Translations under genes and position numbers: made by a program
Source of the DNA: a virus
DNA length: 40,118 bases
Virus genome (UHGV): UHGV-0211833
Reading direction: 5' to 3' (one strand)
The notes under the pieces: generated by a model
What the model was told of the DNA's origin: nothing
Databases searched by the model: none
Seen by the model: only the letters and a program-made list of their open reading frames with translations
Shown here: in pieces, positions 2,574-23,512 of the stretch
Numbering within the stretch: position 1 is the first letter of the stretch
Layout: every line of letters begins with the position of its first letter

Positions 2574-3656
2574 CTATATTTCGTCAATTGCCCTGATAAT
2601 TTTTTGATCTTCTCTTTCTTTGTATTCGTCTATCAGGTACGCATACACTTTAGCGGTTATGGTCATGTCTTTATGACCTAGACGCTTGGATATTGCGTGA
2701 AGGTCAACGTCTTTGGAAAGCAGGTAGGCTACATGGCTATGGCGTAGACTGTGGAAGTGATAGCCAGGTTTATCGATGTCGGCTTTTTTCAAAAATGAAC
2801 GCAAACTCGCATTGACACTCCCGCTGAACGGCATACCATTAGCGGTTTTAAAAATCATGTCATGGTTATTGTTTTTTAACTGCAACAAAGTACTAAGTAG
2901 GAACTTGTTAACTGCAATCGTGCGGTTGGACGAATCATTCTTAGGCGCTTTGATCGAATACGTGGTGGGCGACCATGATTTGGTTATGCTGATTGTCTGT
3001 TTGTCAAAATCGATGTCCGACCATTCAAGAGCCGTAATCTCGCCTAACCGCATACCCGTATAAATTGCCGTCAGTATCATGTAGGGGATAGGGTGCTTGG
3101 GATTGAGACTGCTTTTTATCGTTTCAACCAATCTTTTTATTTCTTCTACCGTCAAATAATCAACGCTAAGACCATGGTCACTGTTGTATACCGTCTCGGT
3201 TCGCTGTGTGAAGTCTTTGGTTATAACCTCGTCCACAACGGCCGACTTGACGCAGCTTTTGATAGTTACTGTAATTAACTGCATGGTGCTTTTTGCGTAT
3301 TTTTGGCCGATTTGGTTGAGGAACTGCTGATAATCAGCGCGAGTAACATTTTGAATTTTTACTCCATCAAAATATTTTTCTATGAGGTTACGCACGGTTT
3401 TGAATCTTTGGAGAGTGCCTGCTTGCACTTTAGGCCTTTTATATGTGTCTACCCATTGATCGTAGTAGTCTAAAAATAGTGCATCTTGCTTGGCTTTTTT
3501 TACACCATCTGCATCTTTTTCTATCGTAGCGGCATACCGTCTGGCCTCTAATTTTGTCGCAAAGCCTTGCTTGCTTGTTTGTCTTAGCTTCCCGTTTTCG
3601 TCACGATGACTGATAGTAACCTTCCAACCGCTTTTTAGTTTTCTATAACTTGCCAT
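2574..3656 (-). CDS. int: Tyrosine integrase
   Basis: Arm-binding N-terminus (GFATKLEA), TGMRLGEI, HSLRHSH, RLGH and the catalytic Y. Start placed at MASYRK behind a GGAAGG RBS. Confidence 0.95.
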   Translation of the reverse strand: MASYRKLKSGWKVTISHRDENGKLRQTSKQGFATKLEARRYAATIEKDADGVKKAKQDALFLDYYDQWVDTYKRPKVQAGTLQRFKTVRNLIEKYFDGVKIQNVTRADYQQFLNQIGQKYAKSTMQLITVTIKSCVKSAVVDEVITKDFTQRTETVYNSDHGLSVDYLTVEEIKRLVETIKSSLNPKHPIPYMILTAIYTGMRLGEITALEWSDIDFDKQTISITKSWSPTTYSIKAPKNDSSNRTIAVNKFLLSTLLQLKNNNHDMIFKTANGMPFSGSVNASLRSFLKKADIDKPGYHFHSLRHSHVAYLLSKDVDLHAISKRLGHKDMTITAKVYAYLIDEYKEREDQKIIRAIDEI

Positions 3657-3720
3657 AATATTCCTTCCCGTTGTATAATGACAATACAACTTAACATATC
3701 AAATCTTATCAAACTTATTA

Positions 3721-4455: not shown

Positions 4456-4502
4456 TACCCGTCATGGCTTTTTACTGTCTGCTGCCATGACGGGTATTTT
4501 TT
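4456..4502 (+). terminator. 13-bp stem terminator with its T tract on the + strand
   Basis: TACCCGTCATGGC...GCCATGACGGGTA-TTTTTT. Confidence 0.7.
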
Positions 4503-5148
4503 ACAGTTCGATTGTTATACGAACTACTTTGCCGACTATTTTAGCCGGTCTGTTTCCATTCAATACGATAGGCTCGTATTTAGGGTTGTCAGGCATTAGC
4601 AGCACTTGACCACTTACGTATTTAACACGTTTTAATGTTGCTTCGTTAGTATCAAGCATTATCACTGCCGCTATTTCGTCATTTTCGACTTCCGGCTGGC
4701 TTCTAACCAGTACAAGCGAATTGTTAGGTATAGTCGGCATCATGCTATCGCCTTGAACCCTCAAATAGAAACATTTGCCATTGGGTAACTGATTAATCGG
4801 TTCCGTTACATACTCCGTAGCGTTTTCTTCGATTAAAAGCGGTTCTCCGCAAGCAATACGACTTAGAACTGGAATTTGAACCGTTTTGTAGATTGGCTCT
4901 ACAATAGTTTCAATTCTCTTTTCTTCTACTCCTCTTTTTTCGACCAAATCAGACTTGTTAACTTTAAAAATCTTGGCCATGGCTTCTATCCTATCAATAC
5001 GTGGATAAGACTCGCCGTTTACCCATCCTGTAACAGACGAATAAGAAACGCCTAGCATTTTGGCTAACTCAGCCCTCGATATATCCAGTCTATTGAGATA
5101 GTAGCGAATGTTCTCCGCCATTATTTCTTTATTACCGAGGTTCGACAT
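4501..5148 (-). CDS. cI: CI-like repressor (XRE HTH plus S24 peptidase)
   Basis: N-terminal HTH (SRAELAKMLGVSYSSVTGWVNGESYPR), ACG cleavage site, GDSM serine and TLKR lysine motifs, GGAGGTG RBS. Confidence 0.92.
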   Translation of the reverse strand: MSNLGNKEIMAENIRYYLNRLDISRAELAKMLGVSYSSVTGWVNGESYPRIDRIEAMAKIFKVNKSDLVEKRGVEEKRIETIVEPIYKTVQIPVLSRIACGEPLLIEENATEYVTEPINQLPNGKCFYLRVQGDSMMPTIPNNSLVLVRSQPEVENDEIAAVIMLDTNEATLKRVKYVSGQVLLMPDNPKYEPIVLNGNRPAKIVGKVVRITIEL

Positions 5149-5172
5149 TTTATCACCTCCCCTCATGTCTTT

Positions 5173-5304
5173 ATTATAGCAAAGCAAACAATGGTTTTCA
5201 ACAGTTAAACTAAAGAAAATAACGGTTTAACTAACAAAAAAAGGAGAAAAAAGACAAAAAATAACAGTTTAACCGTTGACATGACGATTAAACTGTTATA
5301 CACT
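5173..5304. promoter_or_regulatory. Divergent lysis/lysogeny switch: two promoters and four operators
   Basis: Leftward TTGAAA-17-TATAAT (5201-5173) and rightward TTGACA-17-TACACT (5276-5304). AACRGTTWAACYGTT-like operators at 5200, 5221, 5263 and 5283. Confidence 0.85.
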
Positions 5305-16468: not shown

Positions 16469-16957
16469 ATGAAATTTGTAGAAGCCGTAAACTGGGTTGA
16501 GAAAAAATACGGTGCGCAAGCGTTCGACCATTTGGAAGATTACGCTGAAGACGAAGCAGCGCAAATGATTTTGAGAGAACAGAAAAAGGGGCACACAAAG
16601 CAGAAGAAGAAATATGCAAGAGGCAAGGATCCAGGGCCGAAAGTATTTCGTAAAATGGTAGAAGACGGGTACAGCTATGTGGATATAGTGGCGGCAACGG
16701 GTTTGGGCATAACCACGGTCCAAGTCAAAGTTAAAAAGTATGGTTTAAGAGAGTTTTACCACAAAATGCATCCCGAAGTCAGAAGGTCCGACGTCAAGGT
16801 ATTATGCATCAATCACACGACAGGTGAGCAAAGAGAATATGAAACTATGGCAAGCGCCGAACGTGCCTTAGGCTTGTACCGTTGCACTTTGTCGCAAAAT
16901 ATGAAAAATGGAAAAACTTTTGTGCATGGCGACTGGGAAATCAGGAGAAAACAGTGA
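16469..16957 (+). CDS. HTH plus NUMOD1-like DNA-binding protein
   Basis: GYSYVDIVAATGLGITTV HTH, V.CIN..TGE...YETMASAERALG. Confidence 0.65.
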   Translation: MKFVEAVNWVEKKYGAQAFDHLEDYAEDEAAQMILREQKKGHTKQKKKYARGKDPGPKVFRKMVEDGYSYVDIVAATGLGITTVQVKVKKYGLREFYHKMHPEVRRSDVKVLCINHTTGEQREYETMASAERALGLYRCTLSQNMKNGKTFVHGDWEIRRKQ

Positions 16958-17700
16958 GTGAAAGACTTATAGACATTGAAGATGGCTTGATAAAGCCTTT
17001 ACTGGCTCTTCTCTTAAGAGACAAGACGACAGGCGAAAATATAATTTGGGCTACTGACACGCATCCTGTTTTTATGGATGAAAAAGACATCTTGCTGCAT
17101 AGCGAAGCGATAAGGCCAAGGGTTGAAAAATCTTTAGATGAGCAAAAGACGAGGACGAAGAAGAAGGCAGAAGTCTTTACACCTACCTGGGTATGCAATC
17201 AAATGATTGACAATATCGACAAAACAGCAAAGCGAAAGACGTGGAAAGAATATGTTGATTCGAGAGTGCTGGAAATCACTTGCGGCGAAGCACCTTTTCT
17301 CGTACAGAGATACGATACCGTTACAGGGGAACCAATACCTTTAAAAGACAGGGCAGGGCTTCTTGACCGCAAACTGAAAGCCATCGGCAAAAACACATGC
17401 ACAAGAAAAGAATGGGTTGAATGGGCGATCAGGGCGTTTGAATCGTCATACGGTTACGAGTATCAAGGCGACAATCTTCTTATAGCAAGGATCAACTTGC
17501 TGCTAACGTTTGTTGACTACTATAAAGATCGTTGGGGAGAAGACCCAGACAAAATACTTTTGCGGCTCATCACAAATAGAATCGTATGGAACGTGTGGCA
17601 GATGGACGGGTTAAAGAACACAATCCCATTTAGAGAAGACAGATGCAGAATACGTGATTGGCGCAAACGCAAAACGGTTATTTTTATGGAGGAACAGTGA
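16954..17700 (+). CDS. Partial (SAM-binding half) N6-adenine methyltransferase, 'restriction endonuclease subunit M'-like
   Basis: LL.DKTT..NIIWATD, KAEVFTP.W.C..M (motif X), LEITCGEAP (motif I), YGYEYQGDNLLIAR. No NPPY motif. Confidence 0.7.
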   Translation: MSERLIDIEDGLIKPLLALLLRDKTTGENIIWATDTHPVFMDEKDILLHSEAIRPRVEKSLDEQKTRTKKKAEVFTPTWVCNQMIDNIDKTAKRKTWKEYVDSRVLEITCGEAPFLVQRYDTVTGEPIPLKDRAGLLDRKLKAIGKNTCTRKEWVEWAIRAFESSYGYEYQGDNLLIARINLLLTFVDYYKDRWGEDPDKILLRLITNRIVWNVWQMDGLKNTIPFREDRCRIRDWRKRKTVIFMEEQ

Positions 17701-18497: not shown

Positions 18498-18842
18498 TTG
18501 AATTTGAGAAAAGTCAACGCAACAAAAACTGCAAGACAAGTAAAAGTGTTTCTGAGGGAAGATTACCCCGTTTTGCTGGCGAGAGCCGGTGTTTCGCATG
18601 AATTTTTGGAATCAGAAGAAGAGGGCACTGAATTTCTCAATCAAGTAAAAGAAGCGTATTTCAAGTGTTTGCCGTTGCATAAACAGATTATCTCGTTACG
18701 GCTCAAACGAACGACCGATTACAACATCGCAAAAGAAATCGGCTATGAGATTACGCAAACGAGGCAATTCAAAATTGCGGCATACGTGGAATTTGCAGAA
18801 CGCTTAGCGGCATTGAGTGATCTTGATTTGAGAGTGTGGTAA
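18498..18842 (+). CDS. ArpU-family late transcriptional activator
   Basis: KTARQVKVFL..DY, IAKEIGYE..Q....K..AYVEFAE, DLRVW. Last gene of the early/middle block. Confidence 0.75.
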   Translation: MNLRKVNATKTARQVKVFLREDYPVLLARAGVSHEFLESEEEGTEFLNQVKEAYFKCLPLHKQIISLRLKRTTDYNIAKEIGYEITQTRQFKIAAYVEFAERLAALSDLDLRVW

Positions 18843-19010: not shown

Positions 19011-19314
19011 TTTCTTTCAGGATTTCTGATTTTGAATTTTTGGATTTCAGATTTCCTAATTTTGAATTTTGGATTTTCTGATTTTAAAAAATGGTTCCTC
19101 CTGGGCGCCGATTATCGAAATCAGAAGCGGCGATTATCAGTATTAGTTTTATACTTTTCCTTTTATTCTTTTTTATTCTTTTTCTTTTTTATTTTATTTT
19201 TTGCCGTCTTGAAATGCTGCACAAAAAATGCAAAATTTTTCATTTTTTGAATTCCTGATTTTGAAAAATAGGCTTGACGAGCTTGTAAAAAGCCAATTTA
19301 GAAGCGGCGATTAT
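19011..19314. repeat. T-tract-rich degenerate repeat region
   Basis: Repeated GATTT(C/T)TGATTTTGAATTTT-like units, AGAAGCGGCGATTAT at 19123 and 19300. Confidence 0.7.
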
Positions 19315-19451: not shown

Positions 19452-19673
19452 TTACAGAGCTTTTAACTTTTCATCGATTGCATCCCTCAACGCTTGCAGG
19501 TCTTCCCGATAGCGGTCAACACCGACTGCAGCTACTGCCTCAACAGCTTTAGCTGTGGTCATGCGTGCAAAAGCACGGGCGGCCGATTTCTGTTTTCTGT
19601 AATACACTTGCTCGGGGTTGCTGGCATCGTATTTCTGTACTGCTTTAAGTTGTGCTTCGCTTGTTTTTTTCAT
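19452..19673 (-). CDS. Small putative regulator (TSEAQ.KA..KY type), last gene of the leftward island
   Basis: 73 aa, AGGAG RBS, TSEAQLKAVQKY...KSAARAF...DL..L...I.EKL. Confidence 0.7.
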   Translation of the reverse strand: MKKTSEAQLKAVQKYDASNPEQVYYRKQKSAARAFARMTTAKAVEAVAAVGVDRYREDLQALRDAIDEKLKAL

Positions 19674-19691
19674 GATTATCTCTCCTTTTAC

Positions 19692-20621
19692 TTACTTAAC
19701 TTTATGAATTGTTGTTGGCAGATCGTCAGGGGAACTCGCGTTAATGTAAACAGGTTCAATCCACTTCAGGATACGCTCACGATCTGCACTGTCTCGTTTT
19801 CCCGTCCAAAAATGCGACCAGTGGCCACGTCTTAAATGCGGGCGGGGGCGTGCGTGCTGCTTATGATCGCCACCTTTGCGCTGCGTTTTTGCAGCGTATG
19901 AGCGATTACGCTTAATCGTGGCGCCTACACGTACCCCAACATCCCAACGTCTAACCGGGCACTTATCGGTTGCTTTCGGTGTCTTTCCGGGTTGTGTGGT
20001 GGTCGGTCTGCGCTCTTGCACGTCAGCGTTAGCAGCACATAGGTATAACAACAACTGCACTATCAGTTTAGATGCTCTTGTCGTATTGCTATTTGGCGAG
20101 CGGACAAACTCAGCGCCATAATGTCGGGCTTCTTCAATACTTAGTTTTTCGTTTTCTTCAAACGTTCTAGCATCCAAGTGAATATCCAACTGCCCGAACG
20201 CCAGAGTGTCTACGGACACAAACAGGCACTTGATCACGTCTTCTTTTTTCAGGGCAAAGAATCCGTCCATGGGTGTGTCTTGCGGGCCTGTCAGTTTAAC
20301 GGGCATGCAGATGTATGCACACTTAAACGGCAGGCGTTTCAACGTGTCGCTGGCAACCGCTAAATCGGTTTGATCGCTCAAAGTCTCAAATAGTGTCTTG
20401 TCAAAGTCGTATATAGCTTTGGCATCTTTTAGCCATGCGCCCTCAAAAACGTTGGTAAGCGCATAGCCCAACGCATTAAAGCCTTCAGCATTGGTACACT
20501 CTTTTATGATATCCAGTGATTGTTGGACGTCTTGCACTGTTGACAATTCCGGCACAACGGCTAACAGTTTATCATACCGCTTTTGCAACTCAAGCGGTAT
20601 GAGTTTTCGTTTCCTCTTCAT
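19692..20621 (-). CDS. AcrVA2/FinQ-family protein (anti-CRISPR homolog)
   Basis: Collinear motifs GAW....IY.FD, LP..C.Y, GFFA, LLYLC....D, G.R.G, RPH.RRGHW..FW.G and W..PV.IN match AcrVA2 as recalled. Confidence 0.8.
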   Translation of the reverse strand: MKRKRKLIPLELQKRYDKLLAVVPELSTVQDVQQSLDIIKECTNAEGFNALGYALTNVFEGAWLKDAKAIYDFDKTLFETLSDQTDLAVASDTLKRLPFKCAYICMPVKLTGPQDTPMDGFFALKKEDVIKCLFVSVDTLAFGQLDIHLDARTFEENEKLSIEEARHYGAEFVRSPNSNTTRASKLIVQLLLYLCAANADVQERRPTTTQPGKTPKATDKCPVRRWDVGVRVGATIKRNRSYAAKTQRKGGDHKQHARPRPHLRRGHWSHFWTGKRDSADRERILKWIEPVYINASSPDDLPTTIHKVK

Positions 20622-20682
20622 TTAAATCACCTCTTACGCTTGTTTTTCCGGATCCGTCAGTTCCTTCGACCGTGATAAGCAT
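20590..20682 (-). pseudogene. Truncated thymidylate-kinase-like P-loop fragment
   Basis: GAGG RBS plus MLITVEGTDGSGKTSV, then runs out of frame into the acr start. Confidence 0.55.
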
Positions 20683-20707
20683 TTTTTAAAACCTCGTTTC
20701 TTTAATG

Positions 20708-20740
20708 AAAAAGGCTAGCCGCACATGACCAGCCTTTTTT
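20708..20740. terminator. Bidirectional terminator
   Basis: AAAAAGGCT...AGCCTTTTTT. Confidence 0.65.
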
Positions 20741-20754
20741 AATCGTGTTTTTTC

Positions 20755-20997
20755 TTAGCCTTCAATGTATTTAGAATGGTTATAATCGTTACCATCTTCA
20801 TCAACCATGTAAAATTGATCTTCATCAGCGATTAACTCATCGATTGTAAGATTATATTCTTTGCTTTCACGTTTTAACATCTCTACATATTCTTTTTCAG
20901 GTATGATAACGCCCGTGTTGCGGTCTTTATAAAAAACAGTTGAGTCGATTTCGATGTTTGTTCCTTCATAGTATTTTTGTTCTTGTTCTTTTTTCAT
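20755..20997 (-). CDS. Small acidic hypothetical protein (Acr candidate)
   Basis: 80 aa, D/E rich, RBS present. Confidence 0.7.
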   Translation of the reverse strand: MKKEQEQKYYEGTNIEIDSTVFYKDRNTGVIIPEKEYVEMLKRESKEYNLTIDELIADEDQFYMVDEDGNDYNHSKYIEG

Positions 20998-21074
20998 GAT
21001 TCCTTACCTCTTGTCTTTCTTTTTTATTATCTTCCTTACAAGTATATAATAACACGGTATATAAGGGGCTATTT

Positions 21075-21152
21075 TTAATCTTCGTCTTTAAAAAACGGCA
21101 ACAACACACATAGCACGATTGCCGCCATTAGGTAGCCTGACAATTTAATCAT
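21075..21152 (-). CDS. 25-aa single-TM peptide
   Basis: MIKLSGYLMAAIVLCVLLPFFKDED, GAGG RBS, overlaps the upstream stop. Confidence 0.45.
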   Translation of the reverse strand: MIKLSGYLMAAIVLCVLLPFFKDED

Positions 21153-21906
21153 TATCGGCTTCCTCCTCTTCGTCTTCCTCGTATTCCCATAAATCAGCAA
21201 CCGGATCACCACCGGCTAAAAGTTTGTAGCGCATTTGATCATATGCATCGGCATCCGTCAAGCTTGCGAAGTGGCGCCCGTTTTCATCGTAAAAATCAAG
21301 CGTCTGTTCAACTGCGCTAGTTTCGATGCGGTAGTTGTCAAAATCAAAAAAGTTGCAGTAGTCCAGGATCGAACTTATTTCGGAAAGAAGCAGCTGTTCA
21401 TAAATGCAGCCTACACGAAGCGGGTCATCTCCCCAGTAGTGAGCACGGTTAAGCGTGACCGTCAACATATCATCTTTGTAGACGTACTCGCCGACTTTTA
21501 AATAAACTGATTCGTCTTCCAATTCGGCATAGACGTTTTTTTCATCAATCCCGATGTGAAGTTGTGAATCGATCGTTAATTTTTCTTCGGCTTCTTCTTC
21601 GGTCAGTGTTTCATAAACTGACTCAAAATGCGGATGCGGATTGAGCCAGTAGCCTTTTTCTTCGGCATCGTCTTCGTCGCCGATTTCGTCAATATCGAAG
21701 TTATCAATGAAGCCAGCTTTCAAGGCGTTTTCGAGAAGCTCCTTGATGTTGTCCCCGCCAAGATCTTCCCAATCGGCTCGGTTTTCCTCGCTGACGTGCA
21801 TCGTGCTGCCTGCATTCTCGCCTATGTCTTGCCATAAATCGCAAGCCTGATTCCATGTGTGCGCACCAAGAACTACGTTATTAACTTTGATTGCGTAATA
21901 TTTCAT
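21145..21906 (-). CDS. Extremely acidic hypothetical protein (DNA-mimic or Acr candidate)
   Basis: 253 aa dominated by D/E and aromatic residues, AGGAGG RBS, directly downstream of hammerhead 2. Confidence 0.8.
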   Translation of the reverse strand: MKYYAIKVNNVVLGAHTWNQACDLWQDIGENAGSTMHVSEENRADWEDLGGDNIKELLENALKAGFIDNFDIDEIGDEDDAEEKGYWLNPHPHFESVYETLTEEEAEEKLTIDSQLHIGIDEKNVYAELEDESVYLKVGEYVYKDDMLTVTLNRAHYWGDDPLRVGCIYEQLLLSEISSILDYCNFFDFDNYRIETSAVEQTLDFYDENGRHFASLTDADAYDQMRYKLLAGGDPVADLWEYEEDEEEEADND

Positions 21907-21940
21907 GCTGAAGACCTCCTAAAGTCTGTTTTAAATTCGC

Positions 21941-22004
21941 GGCCTGTCTCATCGGTGCAGGGTGGCCATGTCCTACAGACGGGGCATCAGAACCCCGTTT
22001 CGAC
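21941..22004 (-). ncRNA. Type II hammerhead ribozyme (CCGAUGA core variant)
   Basis: GUC-GAAA-CGGGG/CCCCG-UC^-UGUAGG/CCUGCA-CCGAUGA-GAC. Loop I UGGCC can pair with the 3' GGCCG (pseudoknot). Confidence 0.85.
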
Positions 22005-22414
22005 TAGTATTCAATGAATTTGATTTCGAGACTGATTTCAGCGTCAATTTCTTTTTCATTCCAAAGTTCGTTCACTTTGGAATTGGCCTCGTTGTAGCGA
22101 TCAAAGCGCCCAACCTCGTTGCAATTCTCATCTTCGACAACGAAGATAGGGCGGGCCTCGATGATCGGATCGCCTACATATCCATCTTTGCCGATCTCGT
22201 ACAGGGTATCATATGAGATCGTGTGCGTGGTTAACACACACATAGCATGTCGCTTGAACCAAGCTTTCACTTGGCCAAGTGTGCCGGTCGGCGTTGCCCA
22301 GTCCGAATCGCATTCATTGACCGGGTCATTAATGCGTCCTGCATCGAATTCCTCGAAAGAAACTGTAGTTGTTTCCATCATCAAATCTTCTTCACCGTAA
22401 ATCTTTTTCGTCAT
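22004..22414 (-). CDS. Acidic hypothetical protein (136 aa)
   Basis: Start re-placed at MTKKIYGEE behind AAGGAGG. Flanked by both hammerheads. Confidence 0.75.
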   Translation of the reverse strand: MTKKIYGEEDLMMETTTVSFEEFDAGRINDPVNECDSDWATPTGTLGQVKAWFKRHAMCVLTTHTISYDTLYEIGKDGYVGDPIIEARPIFVVEDENCNEVGRFDRYNEANSKVNELWNEKEIDAEISLEIKFIEY

Positions 22415-22431
22415 TTTAATTTTCCTCCTTA

Positions 22432-22492
22432 AGGCTATCTCATCAGTGCACGGCGCCTGTTCCGTACAGACGGGAATTTCTTCCCGTTTCGA
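22432..22492 (-). ncRNA. Type II hammerhead ribozyme (canonical core)
   Basis: UC-GAAA-CGGGAA/UUCCCG-UC^-UGUACGG/CCGUGCA-CUGAUGA-GA. Loop I AGGC pairs with the 3' GCCU. Confidence 0.9.
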
Positions 22493-22496
22493 ATTT

Positions 22497-22526
22497 ATTA
22501 TAAGTCTTGACTTAGACAAATGTCAA
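22497..22526 (-). promoter_or_regulatory. Sigma-A promoter with spacer operator
   Basis: TTGACA-18-TATAAT, TAAGTCTTGACTTA at 22501-22514. Confidence 0.85.
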
Positions 22527-22535
22527 GCGCTTTTT

Positions 22536-22736
22536 TTAATTTGTTTTAGGAAAGTTCCTATATCCCTGAATGTACCAGGTAGCGTCGCCATCCTTTTTAT
22601 AGGCTGACCAGTTCCAGCCGTAAATACCGGCATTGTAGCCGACTTCTTTATATCCTTCGGCGAAGGTGTCTACCGTGAGGGGCAAGGTTACAACCTTACC
22701 GATGATGTCTTTTCTTGTTAACTTTGCTTTCTTCAT
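22536..22736 (-). CDS. Small hypothetical protein
   Basis: 66 aa, AAAGGAAG RBS, own promoter, GYNAGIYGWNW motif. Confidence 0.75.
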   Translation of the reverse strand: MKKAKLTRKDIIGKVVTLPLTVDTFAEGYKEVGYNAGIYGWNWSAYKKDGDATWYIQGYRNFPKTN

Positions 22737-22764
22737 TTTGATTACTTCCTTTCTTTATGACTTA

Positions 22765-22793
22765 AGTATAAGTCGCGACTTAGATAATATCAA
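22765..22793 (-). promoter_or_regulatory. Sigma-A promoter with spacer operator
   Basis: TTGATA-17-TATACT, TAAGTCGCGACTTA at 22769-22782. Confidence 0.85.
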
Positions 22794-22800
22794 CTACTTT

Positions 22801-22995
22801 TTAATTTTTTTCATCGTCTCGGTCGATGACGAGTAAAGCGATGATTATAGCGGCTAGCATGATCAGCCGACCTTGACTCGTGCGCAACAGATAGAAATTC
22901 AACTGTCCGATGTACGCCATCAGGCAATCAAATATAAATTTGAGAAGGTAGCCAAAGTTAACTGCCTTTTCGATTACGAACCACTTCAGACTCAT
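22801..22995 (-). CDS. Small membrane protein
   Basis: 64 aa, hydrophobic C-terminal helix, AAAGGAAG RBS, own promoter. Confidence 0.6.
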   Translation of the reverse strand: MSLKWFVIEKAVNFGYLLKFIFDCLMAYIGQLNFYLLRTSQGRLIMLAAIIIALLVIDRDDEKN

Positions 22996-23028
22996 TCTTC
23001 ATTACTTCCTTTCGTTCTTTATGGTTTA

Positions 23029-23057
23029 AGTATAAGTCTTGACTTAGAGAAAGTCAA
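23029..23057 (-). promoter_or_regulatory. Sigma-A promoter with spacer operator
   Basis: TTGACT-17-TATACT, TAAGTCTTGACTTA at 23033-23046. Confidence 0.85.
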
Positions 23058-23146: not shown

Positions 23147-23443
23147 GTGATTTGTTTGAAGCAGGTAAACCCTTTTTATAAAACGCCTGAATGGCGGGCG
23201 CTGCGACGCTTAGCGCTGAAGCGTGATCACTTTGAATGCGTTGAGTGCAAACGTCAGGGGCTAGTTAGTGACAGTCATATGCTGCAGGTTGATCATATAC
23301 AGCCATTAGACGAGCGCCCAGACTTAGCGCTTAAGTTAAGCAACTTACAATGCTTGTGCCCACATCATCACAATCTCAAGCACGGGCGATTTGACAAGAT
23401 GCAGCAACGGCCGAAGCGGTGGCTCGATGAACGGTGGGACTAA
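23147..23443 (+). CDS. Terminase-associated HNH endonuclease
   Basis: FYKT.EWR..R...L.RD...CVEC, VDHI.P, NLQCLC..HHN.KH. Confidence 0.9.
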   Translation: MICLKQVNPFYKTPEWRALRRLALKRDHFECVECKRQGLVSDSHMLQVDHIQPLDERPDLALKLSNLQCLCPHHHNLKHGRFDKMQQRPKRWLDERWD

Positions 23444-23512
23444 CCCCCCCGCCTTAAAAAAGTAGACGTTTAGGTGAAAAACGGGGACCGGTGGAGGGGG
23501 GTCATCTTCCTA
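23444..23512. other. Putative cos region
   Basis: CCCCCCGCC...GGAGGGGGG tract between HNH and terS, the usual cos position in HK97-like phages. Confidence 0.55.

Follow-up and report, generated by a model that had tools for sequence, protein, structure and literature searches.

The virus genome UHGV-0211833 (40,118 nt; this whole stretch is called the window below) carries, between positions 19452 and 23057, a block of about 3.6 kb that is encoded on the minus strand against its flanks. We consider it probable that this block is a mobile acr-aca cassette (acr, anti-CRISPR; aca, anti-CRISPR-associated), in which an Aca13-family protein would repress three promoters (P1, P2, and P3), a 309-residue protein of the AcrVA2/FinQ family would silence a defence gene other than cas12a, and two hammerhead ribozymes (HH1 and HH2) are predicted to cut the RNA ahead of ribosome-binding sites (RBSs). 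The block holds seven open reading frames (ORFs) and a 25-residue peptide, and lies between an arpU-like gene (+) and an HNH endonuclease gene (+). Read along the minus strand, the order is P1, 64-residue ORF, P2, 66-residue ORF, P3, HH1, 136-residue ORF, HH2, 253-residue ORF, 25-residue peptide, 80-residue ORF, a hairpin, the 309-residue ORF, and a 73-residue ORF. An earlier sequence-only reading had described a minus-strand block with three promoters sharing one palindrome, two hammerheads, two small membrane peptides, an AcrVA2-like gene and a small regulator, and had taken it for an autorepressed acr-type locus. These elements were all recovered, and the prediction of an autorepressed cassette is supported by the Aca13-family regulator, the register of the operator, and the AcrVA2-family gene.

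The three promoters were located on the minus strand at 23029–23057 (P1), 22765–22793 (P2), and 22497–22526 (P3) by consensus scan together with a palindrome search. Their sigma-70 consensus starts at 23057, 22793, and 22526 and matches at 10, 10, and 12 of 12 positions, respectively. They are the best three among 11 consensus matches in the window; the count itself is unremarkable because shuffled sequences also give 11. The palindrome TAAGTC-NN-GACTTA (6-2-6) occurs at 23033–23046 (O1), 22769–22782 (O2), and 22501–22514 (O3), and no further copy was found in the window even when two mismatches were allowed. In each promoter, it ends on the -10 box. Aca13 is reported to be a repressor without a helix-turn-helix (HTH) fold that binds an inverted repeat between the -35 and -10 boxes (PMC12282945), and in the validated Aca13 promoter the 4-bp half-sites stand 2 bp apart and end at the -10 box (PMC12282945 supplement). 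The spacing of the window palindrome and its placement relative to the -10 box equal those of the validated operator, in three copies.

The last ORF of the block (19452–19673, -) encodes the 73-residue candidate for a distant Aca13-family repressor, as indicated by a chain of homologies together with the operator register. The protein is 37.5% identical to a homolog in locus L021 (E 1e-7, search within the loci), which matches residues 92–141 of AcrIIA32, the Aca13 domain (E 1.2e-5). A profile containing both proteins matches the same domain with E 0.003, and both belong to phrog_2277. The predicted structure has four helices (predicted local distance difference test, pLDDT, 87) and found no match among viral folds. 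The Aca13 contact residues K92, W99, R107, and S111 align to Q8, Y15, V23, and K27; all four differ, and positions 23 and 27 change along with the operator. CasPR (CapR and AP2 domains) was also considered for this protein and dropped.

The pairing of regulator and operator was followed through 37 related loci with the acr gene (14 viral and 23 metagenomic). In these relatives, the palindrome changes in sequence yet stays symmetric, tracking the regulator allele. The half-site is TAAGTC in the window and L012, TAAGCT in L013, TAACAT in L001 and L007, TAACCT in L004 and L014, TAACAC in L002, L003, L005, L008, and L009, and TACCGT in L011. Operator and regulator allele agree in 26 of the 27 loci having both. 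The pairing had been fixed before the metagenome loci were retrieved, and the predicted operator was present in 8/9 metagenome loci with an already-seen common allele (two of them duplicates), L241 being the exception. Two further metagenome loci with the L011 allele matched the left half of the L011 operator, and a new allele in three others pairs with an imperfect repeat of its own. When the operator was predicted from the nearest neighbor, the regulator N-terminus was right in 18/18 cases, versus 14/18 for the acr allele, which lies between operator and regulator (20 of the 27 loci entered this test, leaving out the duplicate L240 and six imperfect-repeat loci including L241). The window itself shares its operator with loci whose acr proteins are 63–68% identical and differs from L001, whose acr protein is 98% identical. 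The TAACAT and TAACCT alleles have four differences in their first 40 residues, including position 27, which aligns with S111. The 73-residue protein therefore likely represses P1–P3 through the shared palindrome. More distant Aca13-like genes were also seen after the lysins of L224 and L225, with a TAA-N3-N2-N3-TTA operator layout at the -10 box.

The acr gene (19692–20621, -) encodes 309 residues and matches AcrVA2 (PDB 7CI1) with E 4.5e-12 over residues 59–295, the N-terminal 58 residues lying outside the alignment. With the 7CI1 chain numbering taken as shifted by one, W63, D74, H262, R264, and H267 align with AcrVA2 W79, D89, H286, R288, and H291, five residues reported to be functionally important (10.1101/2022.11.29.518452). 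The HxRxxH motif is present in 115/120 homologs among the matches listed. No relative of the protein was found in one-per-species genomes. The host is probably Ligilactobacillus ruminis, on the basis of one NCBI name, carried by a protein 99% identical to the 73-residue ORF, and a window G+C content of ~43%, the same as that of the species (PMC7016997). Across 91 surveyed L. ruminis genomes, the only types listed are I-B, I-C, I-E, II-A, and III-A, with no type V among them (PMC7016997), and CRISPR-Cas is very common in this species, from 55% to 96% by survey (frequencies in PMC6070500 and PMC8269257). AcrVA2 proper, a Cas12a inhibitor, lowers the level of cas12a mRNA. For the 309-residue protein, the gene silenced is likely some other defence gene of the host.

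Two type II hammerheads were detected by a sensitive scan with Rfam Hammerhead_II (RF02276), HH1 at 22429–22494 (-) and HH2 at 21938–22005 (-), with predicted cuts after 22469 and 21978. HH1 scores 39.8 bits, above the gathering cut-off of 37 (E 9e-6). A fast whole-window Rfam scan at the gathering threshold listed neither. A structure-aware scan returned exactly HH1 and HH2 in the window, versus a mean of 0.02 per shuffle and never two in 100 shuffles. The core (CUGANGA, GAAA, and the NUH triplet) is canonical in HH1; HH2 carries U4C. Both have closed stems I and III, an open stem II, and a pseudoknot between loop I and the 3′ tail. Covariation was measured on 17 sequences, the window's two and 15 of the 17 related-locus hits. 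In this alignment, 93.5% of cells are paired (slid controls, 31–47%) and seven pairs show two-sided change, two of them in the pseudoknot, where 94% of cells are paired and 2/4 pairs changed on both sides. The catalytic core positions are invariant except for U4C. As an alternative to the pseudoknot, its strand in HH1 (22421–22434) can form a weak hairpin of 4 bp with the Shine-Dalgarno sequence, and HH1 folding might free this RBS.

The ribozymes are fitted tightly between the genes and coincide with points of exchange. HH1 is followed by the RBS of the 136-residue ORF, whose stop codon forms the 5′ edge of HH2. DNA similarity to relatives has borders at 22005 and 22411, which are ribozyme edges. 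L239 and L240 carry an HH1/HH2 hybrid with no gene between, the expected product of recombination between HH1 and HH2. Among the 37 related cassettes, seven of which are too short upstream to judge, hammerheads were found in 14 (11/26 after merging four duplicate pairs). All 17 hits share the strand of the acr gene and lie upstream of it by no more than 1.9 kb, and none was found elsewhere in 312 kb of related loci or in 74 other terminase loci. A hammerhead stands directly ahead of the acr gene in three (L236, L245, and L247), and a plain hairpin in most others.

The hammerhead linker was also found elsewhere, in 122 viral loci. Among 85 distinct copies, 69 start within 8 nt after a stop codon (control 3%) and 74 lie within 60 nt ahead of an RBS and ATG. 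Viral neighbors are mostly unknown small genes, with one ArdC and one Cas_VVA1548-family gene among 150 scanned of 173; in cellular genomes, no recognised anti-defence family was seen in 131 scanned of 136. The nature of these neighbors indicates that the linker is general to small-gene islands and not acr-specific. The co-occurrence of AcrVA2 genes and hammerheads raised by the sequence-only reading holds within this phage group (14/37 cassettes), and no AcrVA2 homolog was found by hammerheads outside it. In an unrelated virus (L126:4088-5023), an ArdC anti-restriction gene immediately follows a type II hammerhead. Many low-G+C gut phages (L091–L212, e.g., L123, L094, and L121) have a single hammerhead within 2–3 kb of short genes that are oriented opposite to the flanks; strand agreement there is 92% just downstream of the hammerhead and ~25% beyond 1 kb upstream, and in several of them terminase genes lie ~3.5 kb upstream on the opposite strand.

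The remaining genes of the block are small. The 64-residue ORF (22801–22995, -) has a single hydrophobic segment and no family, and is also present in L012, L013, L239, L240, and L243. Together with the hydrophobic 25-residue ORF (21075–21152, -), whose changes across nine related loci are mostly synonymous, it makes up the two small transmembrane peptides. The basic 66-residue ORF (22536–22736, -; isoelectric point, pI, 9.6), also without family, was absent from the earlier list. The three acidic ORFs, of 136 residues (22004–22414, -; pI 4.34), 253 residues (21145–21906, -; pI 4.05), and 80 residues (20755–20997, -; pI 4.35), had been called very acidic orphans; their acidity and lack of a family match stand, but they do have relatives. 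Those of the 253-residue ORF number 36 proteins, and its N-terminal ~80 and C-terminal ~155 residues each also occur as separate proteins, while identical copies of the 80-residue ORF occur in lysin-adjacent cassettes. A fold search with the 253-residue model (pLDDT 80) gave no clear match (best PDB E 0.037, best Z 3.9), scores at which a known family is still possible, and one unnamed viral fold matched over 77 columns. Atlas searches returned only unnamed or weak matches.

A terminator-like hairpin of -17.9 kcal/mol with a U run (20702–20741, -) precedes the acr gene. Another hairpin at ~21095–21130 was rejected as a terminator, since it lies inside the 25-residue ORF and is broken by synonymous changes in relatives. 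Between the first hairpin and the acr gene, a 30-codon ORF (20590–20682, -), with remnants also in L001, L002, L004, L014, and L226, may be what is left of a former cargo gene; its first 15 residues resemble the P-loop at the beginning of thymidylate or nucleoside kinases. Before the 80-residue ORF, at ~21046–21054 (-), there is a possible extended -10 promoter without operator, spaced as the operator-bearing promoter of L004 and L014; L012 and L013 have an intact hairpin here, whose 3′ arm it replaces. In 12 related cassettes, a 101-residue acidic cargo gene (L003:5632-5937 and relatives) occurs that is absent from the window; it had no match in Pfam, PHROG, or PDB and is an anti-defence candidate.

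The window represents a temperate siphophage with an integrase (2574–3689) and a CI-type repressor (4501–5187), and not the lytic genome assumed earlier. Holin and lysin (509–2126), replication genes, and the ArpU-like late activator (18498–18842, +) are followed, beyond the cassette, by a structural side with the HNH gene, small and large terminase (of a cos-associated type), portal, ClpP, capsid, and tail genes. DNA searches of phage collections gave no relative except a single 66-nt match. Outside the cassette, a 272-residue ORF (16882–17700, +) weakly matches an N6 DNA methylase (E 0.021) and is a possible anti-restriction gene. T-rich degenerate repeats with a unit of ~22 nt lie at 19015–19270, between the late activator and the cassette end. 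Many related contigs terminate near the cassette.

The cassette had been placed beside HNH and a cos end at ~23450. The packaging-type HNH endonuclease (23147–23443, +) is indeed adjacent, but the cos site is more likely at 23489–23498 (+), between HNH and terS: a motif there is kept in terminase relatives, and the record of Listeria phage B025 opens with the corresponding motif, also in this gene context. These two observations make this the probable cos position, by motif conservation and analogy. The cassette thus lies 0.4–4.0 kb from the probable cos, with promoters facing inward from that end. Among the 37 loci, 20 cassettes stand after the lysin, six beside HNH (in a seventh, the arpU flank alone is present), three in another kind of element, and seven were unplaced. 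The HNH-adjacent cassettes are all in a cos-type lineage with terminases 97–99% identical, indicating one relocation event, and the window's own post-lysin slot is empty. Terminase_3, the headful type, was over the cut-off in 9/12 lysin-adjacent viral records, with one weak match and two fragments with none; a cos-type terminase was found in 0 of 10 such records tested. This sorting of position with terminase type fits an advantage of the leading end, as seen in one lineage. In the three loci of this other kind (L230, L231, and L232), no phage genes were detected near the acr-aca cassette; the element encodes a 1064-residue coiled-coil protein and may be a plasmid or integrative element.

For the mobile acr-aca cassette, the following course can be proposed. 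Incoming DNA would meet no repressor, so P1–P3 would fire, and the last gene, encoding the 73-residue regulator, would then shut them down. At each predicted cut, the upstream RNA piece would end in the stem III hairpin, and the downstream RNA would start with a 5′-OH on the stem I hairpin, 55–70 nt ahead of the start codon. A cargo gene would thus receive a uniform 5′ end regardless of upstream sequence. In Firmicutes, RNA that begins with a 5′-OH on a terminal hairpin is resistant to decay from the 5′ end, and the released messages may be stabilized in this way. From the usual promoter spacing, the P3 transcript would start at ~22490, one base inside HH1, so a complete ribozyme would be present only in P1/P2 read-through RNA. 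The promoter-operator and hammerhead-RBS units could serve as short homologies for cargo exchange. The proposal that the polycistronic RNA processes itself into separate mRNAs is partly borne out, since the hammerheads are placed to cut. The acr gene, however, lies 1.3 kb behind HH2 and behind the terminator-like hairpin, indicating that the ribozymes would release the acidic ORFs but not the acr gene.

Several observations weigh against the mobile-cassette interpretation. HH2 scores 33.8 bits, below the gathering value of 37 (E 3e-4), its centroid fold lacks stem I, and its U4C change, a reported natural variant, lowers activity in vitro (PMC3088659). Hammerheads are absent in 16 of the 30 cassettes having enough upstream DNA, and are therefore dispensable. 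A direct search of the 73-residue protein and close alleles against AcrIIA32 found nothing. In L241, the regulator allele is found with the wrong operator left half, and the palindromes of L231, L232, L236, L245, and L247 are imperfect. Shared descent inflates the locus counts, the independent units being about seven allele classes rather than 27 loci. No cargo gene matched a known inhibitor in Pfam, PHROGs, NCBIfam, PDB sequence, or fold searches. Finally, AcrVA2 homologs mostly occur without Cas12a, and the family includes FinQ, which blocks conjugation, not immunity, inhibiting F transfer and lowering transfer-gene mRNA (10.1101/2022.11.29.518452). Because of this, and with no type V system listed in L. 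ruminis, the target of the 309-residue protein is probably not Cas12a.

Three other explanations were considered. The block could be a leading-end anti-immunity operon beside cos that would enter first and whose RNA would be cut into separate mRNAs for several inhibitors, as the sequence-only reading proposed. The nearby probable cos, the inward promoters, the empty post-lysin slot, and the sorting of HNH-adjacent and lysin-adjacent copies by terminase type all favor it. However, the cos cases amount to one relocation event in one lineage, 20/37 cassettes stand after the lysin, the acr gene is second-furthest from the end, and the cargo genes have no known-inhibitor match. The entry order would be last-in-first-out, as in lambda, from which it is borrowed. 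The proximity to the probable cos and the link with terminase type in one lineage stand, and as a general account we find the leading-end operon doubtful. An extended form of the mobile-cassette interpretation, in which the hammerhead-RBS units would be insulators and recombination joints of a plug-and-play Aca13-controlled anti-defence cassette, the cassette would have moved to the first-entering end upon joining a fixed-end cos phage, the AcrVA2-family protein would act in L. ruminis by destroying mRNA for Cas9, Cascade, or some defence other than Cas12a, and repressor specificity would be switched by a few residues of one helix, seems to us rather unlikely as a whole.

The cassette might instead target rival mobile elements or the lysogenic host, by a FinQ-like conjugation block or superinfection exclusion by the membrane peptides, and not host immunity. 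The activity of FinQ, the lack of type V among the systems listed for L. ruminis, the L230–L232 cassettes without detected nearby phage genes, and the two membrane peptides are in line with this. On the other hand, Acrs are typically small and acidic, L. ruminis very commonly carries CRISPR-Cas, and Aca13 with this promoter layout marks proven acr loci of Streptococcus phages (PMC12282945); we judge a purely rival-directed role unlikely. Less probable still is that the hammerheads are passengers, recombination-prone linkers attached to cargo whose cleavage matters little for expression. Their presence in under half of the cassettes, the plain hairpin that mostly precedes the acr gene, and the unknown small genes that the linker mostly flanks in unrelated phages and bacteria agree with it, but recombination alone demands neither a core invariant except for U4C nor covarying stems and pseudoknot, and comparable prophage arrays cleave in vitro and in Escherichia coli (PMC3088659).

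Each part of the mobile acr-aca cassette is of a known kind. Clustered type II hammerheads that flank prophage genes have been described in a report that showed cleavage and proposed that the RNA is processed into mRNAs of one gene each (Perreault et al., 2011, PMC3088659); they share with the window an open stem II, the loop I pseudoknot, and tandem copies bracketing single genes. In the same report, the anti-restriction gene ardA is hammerhead-flanked in Agrobacterium and hammerhead-preceded in Legionella. Hence, the earlier remark that no described coupling of hammerheads to an acr cluster was known to that reading stands for acr, for which our literature search found none, but not for anti-defence genes at large. 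Unlike those arrays, the window ribozymes are part of a cassette under Aca control that also carries an AcrVA2-family gene, their positions match points of exchange, and in three relatives a hammerhead is directly ahead of that gene. The Streptococcus acr-aca13 operons (PMC12282945) likewise have a small non-HTH helical repressor after the acr gene, more than one controlled promoter, and an inverted repeat that occupies the same register between the -35 and -10 boxes; here the host family differs, the regulator is 11 residues longer with different contact positions, about seven allele-operator pairs exist, and the cargo is AcrVA2-family, not AcrIIA. The homology to AcrVA2/FinQ over residues 59–295 keeps the five functional residues and is distant (E 4.5e-12), and the probable host has no reported Cas12a. 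In Lactobacillus phage JCL1032, an AcrVA2-family gene stands between endolysin and attP, and most cassette relatives are also post-lysin; compared with this slot of temperate Firmicutes siphophages (e.g., JCL1032 and B025), the window lineage has the cassette inverted, between late activator and HNH/cos. Aca control of neighboring operons is reported as common (PMC13551039), in a 2026 survey whose main text contains no "ribozyme," "hammerhead," or "AcrVA2." In our literature search, with subscription papers and bioRxiv supplements outside it, no Aca-controlled or AcrVA2-family locus with a hammerhead turned up. What appears new is the combination, the series of Aca13 alleles and operators, the ribozymes as exchange joints, and the relocation linked to packaging.

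The function of self-cleaving ribozymes in phages has been called unresolved (PMC6765202). With this cassette, both this role and what AcrVA2 relatives target where the host has no Cas12a can be tested in a gut species that grows in culture. Its relatives supply natural controls, as the same acr gene is preceded in some by a hammerhead and in others by a plain hairpin, and occupies two genome positions. The series of alleles and operators provides a ready specificity code of the non-HTH Aca13 fold, and it flags the acidic cargo genes as anti-defence candidates.

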